Positions 4,168 through 32,334 of a DNA stretch of 64,000 nt are shown piece by piece. Every line of letters begins with the position of its first letter. Within the stretch, counting starts at the first letter, position 1. The notes under the pieces were generated by a model, which had not been told where the DNA came from, ran no database searches, and was given only the letters and a program-made list of their open reading frames with translations. The DNA is from Minisyncoccota bacterium (GTDB lineage: Bacteria > Patescibacteriota > Minisyncoccia > JAHIHE01 > JAGLIN01): contig JBAZUT010000001.1 of the NCBI GenBank assembly GCA_041661265.1, forward strand, positions 65,854-129,853, given 5' to 3'. The translations under genes were made by a program, and so were the position numbers.

Positions 4168-5391
4168 TCAATTCCCGAAATCAAGATATTTCCTACCTTT
4201 CAATTCTTCCGGCATATATTTCTGATCCTCCTTATAGTCAAAATTTGGAGAATATTTATATCCCTTTCCATAGTCCAGTTCTTTCATGAGCTTGGTAGGC
4301 GCATTTCTGATGTGCAGCGGCACGGGAAGATTGCCGTATCTTTTCACATCGGAAACGGCTTTTCCATAGGCCGTATAAAGCTCATTGTTTTTCTTGCTCC
4401 TGGCCATATAGACGACGGCCTGAGCAAGATTCACATTACATTCGGGCATTCCGATGAAATGACAAGCCTGATAGGCGGAAACCGCCTGGTCAAGCGCAAA
4501 TGAATTCGCGATCCCGATATCCTCGGAAGCGAATCTGATAAGTCGGCGGGCTATATAAAGAGGATCTTCCCCCGCTTCAAGCATCCTTGTGAGCCAGTAT
4601 AAAGCGGCGTCTGCGTCCCCTCCTCGCATGGATTTATGCAGTGCGGAAATTATATTATAATGTTCCTCTCCATCCTTGTCATAGGCAAGAGAACGCTGAA
4701 GAGCCTCTTCGATCATGTTCTTTTCTATTTTTTTGTCGATATCGCTCGCGAATTCAAGGGCATTAAGAGCGATCCTCGCATCCCCTCCCGACATGTCGGC
4801 AAGATATTCTATGTCCTCTGTCTTGATCTCTATCTTCAACTTTCCAAGTCCCGATTCCTTGTCCTTTAGAGCGCCTGCGATAATTTTTACAATGTCTTCT
4901 TTAGACAGCTTATCGAGCACAAAAACGCGGGAACGCGAAAGAAGAGCGTTATTCACTTCAAAGCTGGGATTCTCCGTCGTAGCGCCGATCAGGATTATTG
5001 TGCCATTTTCGACATGCGGGAGAAGAGCATCCTGCTGGGACTTGTTGAACCGGTGGATCTCATCGATGAATATGATCGTCTTTTTCCCCGTTTTTTTAAG
5101 CTCTTCCGCTTTTTTCACCTCAGCGCGGAGGTCCTTCACTCCGCTCGTTGTCGCGCTCAATTTTATGAACTCCCCTTTTGTAGCTTTTGCGATGATCGAA
5201 GCCAGGGTTGTTTTTCCGGAACCAGGAGGACCCCACAGGATCATTGAGGGCACATTGTCCGTTTCTATGGCTTTTTTCAGGATCTTGCCCTCGCCCAAAA
5301 GCTTTTCCTGGCCGATAAAATCAGCCAGCGTTTTCGGACGCATTCTGTCAGCCAGAGGGATTGTGTGGACTTTATTAACCATATTTTTCAT
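4168..5391 (-). CDS. rarA: Replication-associated recombination protein A (RarA/MgsA AAA+ ATPase)
   Basis: Walker A GPPGSGKTT, DEIHRF, characteristic RarA C-terminal region. Confidence 0.85.
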   Translation of the reverse strand: MKNMVNKVHTIPLADRMRPKTLADFIGQEKLLGEGKILKKAIETDNVPSMILWGPPGSGKTTLASIIAKATKGEFIKLSATTSGVKDLRAEVKKAEELKKTGKKTIIFIDEIHRFNKSQQDALLPHVENGTIILIGATTENPSFEVNNALLSRSRVFVLDKLSKEDIVKIIAGALKDKESGLGKLKIEIKTEDIEYLADMSGGDARIALNALEFASDIDKKIEKNMIEEALQRSLAYDKDGEEHYNIISALHKSMRGGDADAALYWLTRMLEAGEDPLYIARRLIRFASEDIGIANSFALDQAVSAYQACHFIGMPECNVNLAQAVVYMARSKKNNELYTAYGKAVSDVKRYGNLPVPLHIRNAPTKLMKELDYGKGYKYSPNFDYKEDQKYMPEELKGRKYLDFGN

Positions 5392-5403
5392 CTGATAAAA
5401 TTT

Positions 5404-5420
5404 AAGGAGCTAAGCTCCTT
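5404..5420. repeat. REP-like palindrome copy a (aaggagctaagctcctt), overlapping the RAYT stop codon
   Basis: Imperfect palindrome ggagct-a-agctcc. Confidence 0.65.
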
Positions 5421-6090
5421 GTTGCGCGCTTTCTATATAATACCTCTCTAGATCTTTTCTGCTTCCGGACTCCGAGATCACCATATCGACATAATTCTCA
5501 TACTCTTTTTCATCCGCGAAATTGGACATAATGGCCTCCCTGCTGCATAGAACTCCCGCCCTGCTTCCCAAATAATCAGGATAGCTGCACCATTTATAGT
5601 TTCTTGCATCTGATAATCTATGTATGCCCGCATTGCCGTTGATGTATGCCGAAAGCCACAATAGATACTCATTGGTATCTATGAGGATGGCCTTAAACGG
5701 TCCCTGAAAAAGCGATCCGGAACGATCATTTCTCTGGTTGAAATAATTTGTAAAACTGGTGCCGATTTTGTGCATAAACATCCTGATCCCATCGTCCCCG
5801 GTCTGCTTCAATATCAAATGATAATGATTCGGATTAAGACAATAGCAGACAATTTCCACCAGCTTTGATTCCAATAAGGAGCTTAGCTCCAAATTCCGGG
5901 AGCTAAGCTCCTTATTGGATGAGTTGTTCTTAATGATAGCTCGCTGTTCATAACTCGAAAAATTATTGAACATCTTCATACTTACCATAAATTTAGCATA
6001 GTCTTCGGCATCACAAAAAACATCCCGTTTATCTACGCCACGATTATATATATGATAATATTCCCCATTTGCAAAGCTTGTTTTTCGCAT
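5410..6090 (-). CDS. REP-associated tyrosine transposase (RAYT, Y1 HUH transposase, IS200-like) carrying an in-frame insertion encoded by two REP copies
   Basis: YHIYNRG, HuH motif NPNHYHLIL, SLFQGPFKAILIDTNEYLLWLSAYI; the stop codon TAG lies inside a REP palindrome. Confidence 0.7.
   Translation of the reverse strand: MRKTSFANGEYYHIYNRGVDKRDVFCDAEDYAKFMVSMKMFNNFSSYEQRAIIKNNSSNKELSSRNLELSSLLESKLVEIVCYCLNPNHYHLILKQTGDDGIRMFMHKIGTSFTNYFNQRNDRSGSLFQGPFKAILIDTNEYLLWLSAYINGNAGIHRLSDARNYKWCSYPDYLGSRAGVLCSREAIMSNFADEKEYENYVDMVISESGSRKDLERYYIESAQQGA
5871..5918. repeat. Composite REP doublet b+c (ccaataaggagcttagctcc / aaattccg / ggagctaagctccttattgg), in frame inside the RAYT CDS
   Basis: Direct read; translated as NKELSSRNLELSSLL within the ORF. 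Confidence 0.65.
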
Positions 6091-6177
6091 ACAATGGCCC
6101 TAATTGCTCTAATTTGTCTGCATTTACATTATATCCCACCCGAAAAACAAAAACAAACTGTAAAATGCACAGTTTGA

Positions 6178-6206
6178 TCCCAATAAGGAGCTAAGCTCCT
6201 TATTGG
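6178..6206. repeat. REP copy d, full 27-bp palindrome ccaataaggagctaagctccttattgg, about 90 bp upstream of the RAYT start
   Basis: Direct read; shares the upstream flank agtttgatcc with copy b. Confidence 0.7.
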
Positions 6207-6251
6207 ACGTTGTGTTTCCGATGTCTGTTTATTCCGAAGCGAATGATCCGC

Positions 6252-32302: not shown

Positions 32303-32334
32303 CAAAAAAGTTCCATGGTCATGGAACTTTTTTA
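32303..32334. terminator. Bidirectional terminator (agttccatg-gtc-catggaact with A-run before and T-run after) between convergent 31831..32226 and uvrA
   Basis: Direct read. Confidence 0.6.

Follow-up and report, generated by a model that had tools for sequence, protein, structure and literature searches.

A candidate REPtron-like unit of Patescibacteria with a gene-specific palindrome on both sides of, and in frame inside, a RAYT-like transposase gene

We analyzed a 64,000-nucleotide stretch (the window) of contig JBAZUT010000001.1 from a tiny-genome Minisyncoccota bacterium (assembly GCA_041661265.1), which holds a gene for a Y1/HUH enzyme resembling the tyrosine transposases (RAYT) associated with repetitive extragenic palindromes (REP), and three copies of one palindrome at that gene. 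Across the enzyme family, the same layout was found: a hairpin, the 5' part of the gene, a hairpin, the rest of the gene and a hairpin. We interpret the locus as a REPtron-like unit of a Patescibacteria-specific RAYT-like Y1/HUH clade, in which the palindrome is most likely the cognate hairpin substrate of the enzyme, and we assign this interpretation a probability of about 0.6. REPtrons are RAYT/TnpA_REP genes flanked by REPs or by bacterial interspersed mosaic elements (BIME)/REPIN (Nunvar 2010; Bertels & Rainey 2011, PMC3116915; Ton-Hoang 2012, PMC3333891).

The enzyme gene and its three palindrome copies

The palindrome (CCAATAAGGAGCTWAGCTCCTTATTGG) was searched for across the window by using its 17-nt core (AAGGAGCTWAGCTCCTT) with ≤2 mismatches allowed. 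The core matched three sites only, against an expectation of 0.04 (0 of 100 shuffles reached the observed count); these lie upstream of the gene, inside it and at its stop codon (Table 1). The upstream copy, which has the stop codon of the upstream gene (6252) on one side and a terminator-like hairpin on the other, folds as single-stranded DNA at -12.1 kcal/mol (z -7.2). The internal copy is an inverted doublet (arms: 21 nt each, 100% complementary; spacer: 8 nt, AAATTCCG on the + strand), which is in frame in the linker that joins helix alpha1 to strand beta2, encodes SNKELSSRNLELSSLLE and folds at -24 kcal/mol (z -10.7). The third copy is shortened to a 7-8 bp stem (-5.9 kcal/mol; z -1.9) and has the TAG stop codon (5410-5412, - strand) at its centre. 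An earlier annotation made from the letters alone (the sequence-only reading) had placed a doublet in frame before the HUH motif and a copy over the stop codon, and both placements were confirmed. Its statement that copies of the 27-bp palindrome flank the gene holds in that there is a copy on either side, but the stop-codon copy is not a full 27-mer; the addition of about 20 residues that it ascribed to the in-frame copy is to be corrected, as the palindrome encodes about 16 residues of a 37-residue linker. The upstream and internal copies also have a common flank, TTTGATY...GGAYG.

The 226-residue translation matched the Pfam family PF01797 (Y1_Tnp) at 26.7 bits against a cut-off of 23, with residues 69-152 aligned; the N-terminal beta1-alpha1 part falls outside this alignment because of the long linker. 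A structure model was computed by using AlphaFold (AF2) on 121 aligned homologues, among which H89, H91, Y149, N151 and N153 were invariant. The model was confident (predicted local distance difference test, pLDDT: 87.6; predicted template modelling score, pTM: 0.84) and comprised beta1 (residues 11-18), alpha1 (28-40), beta2 (78-85), the HUH strand (89-96) and the tyrosine helix (140-151), with low confidence limited to the linker at about residues 51-75 (pLDDT 57-68). The top solved structure in a Foldseek search was 4er8_A, a complex of E. coli TnpA_REP with a REP hairpin (E-value: 1.5e-6; target-normalized TM-score: 0.68), followed by the TnpA proteins of ISDra2, IS608 and IS200. A sequence-profile search of the PDB with the enzyme returned no meaningful match. 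Since the open reading frame (ORF) is of full length, the invariant residues are present and the predicted fold is confident, the gene is intact and its product looks catalytically competent. The assignment to the Y1/HUH transposases in the sequence-only reading stands, and its suggestion of an inactivated RAYT is not borne out. Low pLDDT and variable length are the sole indications that the linker may be exposed on the surface.

A homologue search (E-value ≤ 1e-3) yielded 3109 sequences, and all organism names given by the source among the 120 matches listed were those of Patescibacteria groups. The exact 226-residue protein is named "REP element-mobilizing transposase RayT" by JGI (exact-sequence cluster look-up). 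The NCBI version of the gene (MFA6096079.1) has 192 residues, 34 fewer than the ORF; a later start codon would account for this difference, and it would drop the conserved MRK...YYHIYNRG beta1 strand.

An internal palindrome across the enzyme family

Genomic loci of relatives (79, labeled with L-numbers, out of >586 existing) were fetched and 67 genes were scored. The linker DNA of each gene was searched for inverted repeats, and a stem score of ≥9 was taken as strong. Such a stem was present in the linker of 52 of the 67 Patescibacteria orthologues (about 40-65% amino acid identity; arms up to 26 bp), compared with 1 of 67 for an equal-length control stretch of the same coding sequence (CDS) and an average score of about 6 for shuffled linkers. 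The site lies between helix alpha1 and the HUH strand, at the same place where aligned homologues have a linker of variable length (24-68 residues in the 81 parsed). Of 81 close homologues, 33 have two occurrences of ELSS, which is the palindrome read in frame (GAG-CTN-AGC-TCC), in the linker. Other lineages have other linker palindromes, among them GGAGCTWAGCTCC, GGGACTAAGTCCC, ACTTGGAGGTT-C-AACCTCCAAGT and AAGGTTCGACCTT, and the encoded peptides vary as well; the dyad symmetry alone is conserved.

As the orthologues carry a palindrome at the same site, it is an ancestral feature of the linker and not a one-off insertion. The copy inside the ORF is ancient; it does not disable the enzyme, and its translation is a variable linker modeled with low confidence. 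The proposals of a recent or unique REP invasion and of an excision or insertion footprint are thereby set aside, and the orthologue alignment that the sequence-only reading had called for found the insert common to orthologues and not peculiar to this gene.

In nine genes (L072, L073, L047, L057, L064, L068, L046, L041 and L028), a second in-frame copy is found directly after the catalytic-tyrosine helix, at about nucleotides 450-500 of the gene (context: N-L-N-x-x-V-H, then QLGGSASKL, then ..SSW.EY), so that in this sub-clade the catalytic core is bracketed by two hairpins in one reading frame. The clade with single rather than doublet palindromes reads L-G-x-S-x-S/P-K at both in-ORF sites, always in the same frame, and this constancy fits turnover in situ better than re-insertion.

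Concerted evolution of the palindromes at each locus

The flanks of each gene were searched for its own palindrome by using a 12-nt probe with ≤1 mismatch (upstream search span: 150 nt). The palindrome of the gene itself was found upstream in 31 of 51 genes and at or after the stop codon in 34 of 52; at least one end carried it at 39 of 52 loci and both ends did at 26. Several loci scored as negative show related, more diverged flanking palindromes by eye. The internal 10-nt unit recurred exactly in the flanks of its own gene at 30 of 47 loci, versus 26 of 2162 comparisons (1.2%) with the flanks of other loci.

Several genomes hold two or three family members. Paralogues in the same genome are 49-74% identical in amino acid sequence and each has a different, private palindrome, so the match is to the gene and not to the genome; the closest pair among the 67 genes has 87% identity. 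The difference between L022 and L037 (78% amino acid identity), CTTGG versus TTTGG, is seen in each of the three copies and extends to both arms. The palindromes of a locus thus undergo gene-specific concerted evolution. At L055, the loops of the flanking hairpins contain a further, nested palindrome (ACTTAGAAAC-ggggtttcgaaacccc-GTTTCTAAGT), and the loop of the in-ORF copy is 3 nt long.

Stem composition and overlap with putative promoters

Pairs other than Watson-Crick made up 2 of 809 in internal stems, 3 of 562 in upstream stems and 3 of 604 in downstream stems (99.6% Watson-Crick overall). The mismatches included 2 G-T and 5 A-C pairs, that is, no excess of G-T, and the internal loop was 0-1 nt long in 32 of 52 genes. 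These counts fit an element at the DNA level rather than a hairpin selected as RNA.

In 42 of 66 genes, the distance from the end of the upstream hairpin to the ATG is 4-38 nt. Many orthologues have a TGnTAtAAT box directly beside this hairpin, with about 6 nt between box and ATG; the TTGGAA found 17 nt from TATAAT belongs to the left arm, and the TG of an extended -10 element closes the right arm. By its resemblance to the consensus, this arrangement looks like a leaderless promoter built into the upstream palindrome; such promoters, if real, would put the hairpin outside the mRNA of a leaderless-type transcript. One form of the join, in which a hairpin CACTTGGnnnnn-n-nnnnnCCAAGTG is followed at once by a TAtAAT-like box with 5-10 nt left to the ATG, can be seen in the last ~45 nt before the genes of L035, L041, L044, L046, L055, L057, L059, L061, L073, L075 and L076.

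Dispersed copies in relatives

Additional full copies were found kilobases away from the gene at 23 of 52 loci. Their density in relatives is at most ~0.66 elements per 10 kb, a value inflated by short-probe noise, and many of the copies lie inside ORFs. In-frame full copies were present in Pfam-confirmed genes for GatB (two), LigA, an Elp3-like radical-SAM/GNAT protein (two lineages) and a methyltransferase (Table 1), where they add 9-17 residues to essential or housekeeping genes of Patescibacteria. A common insertion site in the two Elp3-like lineages was considered and rejected: the copies are at different codons, with the hairpins ~15 residues apart, which indicates independent insertions. 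Within the window, the RAYT-like gene is the only one with an in-frame copy.

A metagenome scan with a 19-nt core returned at least 119 contigs, of which L113 alone has the window-type outer stem together with a RAYT-like gene; the scan accordingly yields no genome-wide count for the source organism. The remaining contigs carry heterogeneous AAGGAGCT-type palindromes with unrelated flanks. A separate composite repeat (TTAAGGAGGTYRGAT-TAAGGAGCTWAGCTCCTTAA) that contains the AAGGAGCT core recurs many times, contigs of 50-100 kb holding several copies each, with tandem arrangements in some cases. It was seen at L092, L096, L101, L111, L112, L122, L140, L141, L146, L148, L153, L157, L186, L187 and L196 (mostly NPIE01... 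contigs); a screen of L081-L160 detected no RAYT-like gene at composite-repeat loci.

Closest relatives and other features of the window

The window was compared with its closest relatives, L113 and L080 (92-94% nucleotide identity; independent assemblies). The doublet has 1 variable column in 50, versus 89 in 631 for the rest of the CDS (one-sided Fisher's exact test, p = 0.006); at third codon positions the counts are 1 of 16 versus 61 of 211 (p = 0.037). In L113 and L080, a TAA stop codon stands just ahead of the palindrome; in the window (5410-5425), TAATAA has become CAACAA and the ORF extends by four residues (QQGA) to the TAG at the palindrome centre.

The downstream rarA gene has 87% amino acid identity in L080 and serves as a synteny anchor outside the element. 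It adjoins the enzyme gene in the window, L080 and L113 and in none of the other 79 loci; synteny was for this reason dropped as a proof of deep vertical descent, the adjacency being limited to the two closest relatives. Of the two relatives, L113 has the upstream palindrome and L080 lacks it; the upstream gene of L080 differs too, which places this palindrome at a synteny break. The terminator-like hairpin separates this palindrome from the gene's own -10-like box, which a promoter scan left uncalled, there being no -35 match.

No other REP-like palindrome family was found in the window, and an Rfam scan of it reported one tRNA overall and nothing at the locus. A perfect palindrome with 14-bp arms (AAAAAAGTTCCATG..CATGGAACTTTTTT; 32304-32333) has no relation to the REP-like family and probably represents a bidirectional terminator.

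Table 1. Coordinates of the enzyme gene, palindrome copies and neighboring features in the window, and of genes in relatives that host in-frame copies
Feature	Position	Strand	Basis or remark
RAYT-like Y1/HUH gene, 226 aa, intact	5410..6090	-	ORF list, Pfam, AF2, Foldseek
HUH motif H89-Y90-H91 (translation HYH)	5818..5826	-	translation, homologue alignment
Catalytic tyrosine motif Y149-I-N-G-N153 (translation YINGN)	5632..5646	-	translation, homologue alignment
Upstream perfect 27-bp palindrome, 13+1+13, CCAATAAGGAGCT-A-AGCTCCTTATTGG	6180..6206		90 bp before start codon
In-frame inverted doublet	5870..5919		arms 5870-5890 and 5899-5919, spacer 5891-5898
Shortened palindrome copy at stop codon, AAGGAGCTAAGCTCCTT	5404..5420		12 bp upstream of rarA start (5391)
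Terminator-like hairpin CAAACTGTgcattttACAGTTTG and T-run	6141..6176	-	terminator scan; conserved in L113 and L080
-10-like TATAAT within GGGATATAAT, ~37 nt before ATG	6128..6133	-	inferred from sequence; block conserved in three relatives
RarA/MgsA-type AAA ATPase gene (rarA), downstream neighbor	4168..5391	-	ORF list; Pfam families of L080 orthologue
GatB gene, relative	L044:14464-15909		in-frame copies
LigA gene, relative	L047:1265-3325		in-frame copy
Elp3-like gene, relative	L031:7285-8955		in-frame copy
Elp3-like gene, relative	L053:3-842		in-frame copy
Methyltransferase gene, relative	L031:10720-11487		in-frame copy

Interpretation and alternative explanations

The palindrome is kept at fixed sites, namely beside the promoter, in frame in the alpha1-beta2 linker, at the stop codon and, for one sub-clade, in frame after the catalytic-tyrosine helix too. 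In the mechanism that we propose, the enzyme would act preferentially in cis, overwriting and homogenizing hairpins at these pre-existing sites, and it may do so by cleavage and strand transfer at the hairpin feet as E. coli TnpA_REP does (structure 4ER8; PMC3479197), in which cleavage at the foot is followed by strand transfer. Overwriting in cis would account for the joint change of all copies and of both arms with site and frame fixed. The same activity might occasionally seed copies at other sites, some of them in frame within other genes, and the promoter-proximal copy probably gives autoregulation in many lineages.

Several results weigh against this interpretation. The enzyme scores 27.5 bits with the curated RAYT equivalog NF047646 (REP_Tyr_transpos, NCBIfam), far under its cut-off of 80. 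The core search found no dispersed copies in the other 63 kb of the window, and the element may no longer be moving in the source genome or the hairpins may serve the gene only. A GTAG/CTAC guide tetranucleotide at the hairpin foot adjoins none of the three copies in the window. The internal palindrome is dispensable, since 15 of the 67 orthologues are without a strong one. The upstream palindrome is lacking in L080, and because the window copy stands 90 bp from the ATG and behind a terminator, the argument from promoter overlap does not apply at this locus. Concerted change, moreover, could come from short-tract gene conversion or from pure selection on binding sites. A high-copy, mainly extragenic repeat family, as expected for a REPtron, was seen neither in these 63 kb nor at the loci of relatives. 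What stands of the REP/RAYT framing in the sequence-only reading is a gene flanked by its own palindrome in the manner of a REPtron; we class the enzyme as RAYT-like, as it lacks high-copy dispersal (at least in the window) and the curated equivalog score.

It is rather unlikely, in our judgment, that the hairpins are purely cis-regulatory, with the protein binding the promoter-proximal, in-ORF and stop-codon copies and so holding down its own transcription or translation, and with concerted change reflecting co-evolution of binding specificity rather than copying. The fixed positions across the family, the gene-specific palindrome, the conservation of the doublet above the CDS background and an upstream hairpin that in many orthologues fills the region from the -35 to the spacer of a leaderless-type promoter all agree with such a role, and E. 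coli TnpA_REP is strongly self-limited (PMC3479197). Regulation would nevertheless leave the copies in the GatB, LigA and Elp3-like genes unexplained; the upstream copy of the window is away from the promoter and that of L080 is missing, and it is improbable that point mutation alone tracked a changing specificity at three to four sites and in both arms. This explanation is compatible with the data and does not exclude a REPtron-like unit. An autonomous IS200-like insertion sequence (IS), of which the flanking palindromes would be the left and right ends, the internal copy a spare end and the whole a transposing unit of ~800 bp, we consider improbable. The unit size fits IS200, several genomes have two or three members, the synteny breaks at the upstream palindrome and conservation of the gene context stops at the close relatives L080 and L113, which alone have the rarA adjacency. 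Near-identical copies are absent, however, as the identities between paralogues and their different hairpins show, and the closest of the 67 genes reach just 87%; the position beside rarA is stable in three independent assemblies; relatives have dispersed solo hairpins with no gene beside them; both ends are one perfect palindrome instead of distinct imperfect left-end and right-end hairpins; and the fold is nearer to TnpA_REP than to the TnpA of IS608 or ISDra2. The sequence-only reading had named two observations that would count against it, a palindrome found only here, taken as a sign of IS200 ends, and orthologues with the same insert, and both were largely made. The palindrome is indeed confined to this locus in the 64 kb, but IS200 ends are not supported either, because the paralogues are diverged with private palindromes and the relatives keep the rarA adjacency.

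Stem-loops that act in the mRNA, for stability, termination or ribosome pausing and without relation to the DNA activity of the enzyme, are very unlikely. REPs elsewhere stabilize mRNA and terminate transcription (PMC3733652, PMC6006769), the stop-codon copy was called terminator-like in the terminator scan, and the L080 doublet has a T-G wobble on the sense strand. Against this stand the almost purely Watson-Crick stems without a surplus of G-T over A-C, the many internal loops of 0-1 nt, which are too short for RNA hairpins, the position of the upstream copy in the promoter and ahead of the likely transcription start at many loci, and the lack of any Rfam family match. Scarcely credible is a selected ELSS...ELSS peptide motif with the DNA dyad as its by-product: ELSS does recur in the linkers of the close homologues, but other lineages have unrelated peptides there (LGTKSP, MDIECPLWTFDVH, SDLGYPRSDL) with the dyad alone conserved, the same nucleotide sequence recurs in non-coding flanks, the linker is of low model confidence and variable length, and the ELSS codons among the loci listed are all of the dyad-keeping kind (GAGCTNAGCTCC).

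Within the preferred interpretation of a REPtron-like unit, we raise only tentatively the possibility that the in-ORF hairpin is functional and not a passenger. The enzyme would then have its recognition site in its own coding sequence as well as at its promoter and stop codon, and the two would form an obligately linked replicase-replicator pair, either with feedback in which self-nicking or binding limits expression or with the hairpin as a protected master donor that renews the REP copies of the genome. Such a pair would also account for the lasting match between a single-copy RAYT and its repeat across deep time.

Discussion

The locus resembles known REPtrons in its Y1/HUH enzyme with a fold closest to TnpA_REP, in one palindrome that flanks the gene and is specific to each gene and paralogue, in the lack of recent gene duplicates (single copy in the window), in doublets of inverted units as in REPINs and in a hairpin that overlaps the 3' end of the gene and supplies its TAG stop codon, the last being noted for REPs generally by Di Nocera 2013 (PMC3733652). 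It differs from them in that the cognate palindrome is also in frame inside the ORF of the enzyme, at a position conserved across the clade. Furthermore, the palindromes are perfect, with loops of 0-1 nt and no GTAG foot; the copy number is very low both in the window and in relatives; the protein, at 226 residues, has an N-terminal linker ~30 residues longer and a C-terminal extension of ~60 residues; and the enzyme remains under the NCBIfam equivalog cut-off. With IS200/IS605 elements (IS200, IS608 and ISDra2) the locus has in common the Y1/HUH superfamily, a unit of ~0.7 kb with subterminal hairpins at either side and a promoter beside the left hairpin. Unlike these, it shows no multicopy identical units, its ends are one identical perfect palindrome, solo hairpins are dispersed and an extra hairpin lies inside the ORF.

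Rickettsia palindromic elements (RPE) were reportedly described by Ogata in 2000 as lying in frame inside genes. Like these and like intragenic REPs, the palindromes here are short in-frame insertions in bona fide genes, adding 9-30 residues in tolerant loops, with both singlets and dimers present. In contrast to RPE, the host gene here is the presumed mobilizing enzyme itself, and the insert holds its position across deep divergence, with a sequence that changes together with that of the flanking copies. Intragenic REPs and REPs that supply TAG stops are already known, and CGTC repeats, including RPE-4 and RPE-6 of R. conorii, are not associated with transposase genes (PMC3733652). In text searches of PMC3733652, PMC6006769, PMC8266576 and PMC5581495, a REP lying within a RAYT ORF was nowhere described, which is absence of evidence.

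The entry of palindromes into essential Patescibacteria genes in frame, as with RPE, matters for the annotation and alignment of proteins, and the shortening of the present gene to 192 residues by NCBI is an example. The locus touches two open questions, namely what keeps RAYTs matched to their palindromes and for what reason single-copy RAYT genes persist at all. For these, the loci of this family are a compact test case, with a small gene, three to four copies of the presumed substrate at fixed places, a substrate specific to each paralogue and concerted evolution. With substrates specific to each gene and evolving in concert, the determinants of specificity should be readable from comparative data, and action in cis and autoregulation become testable.

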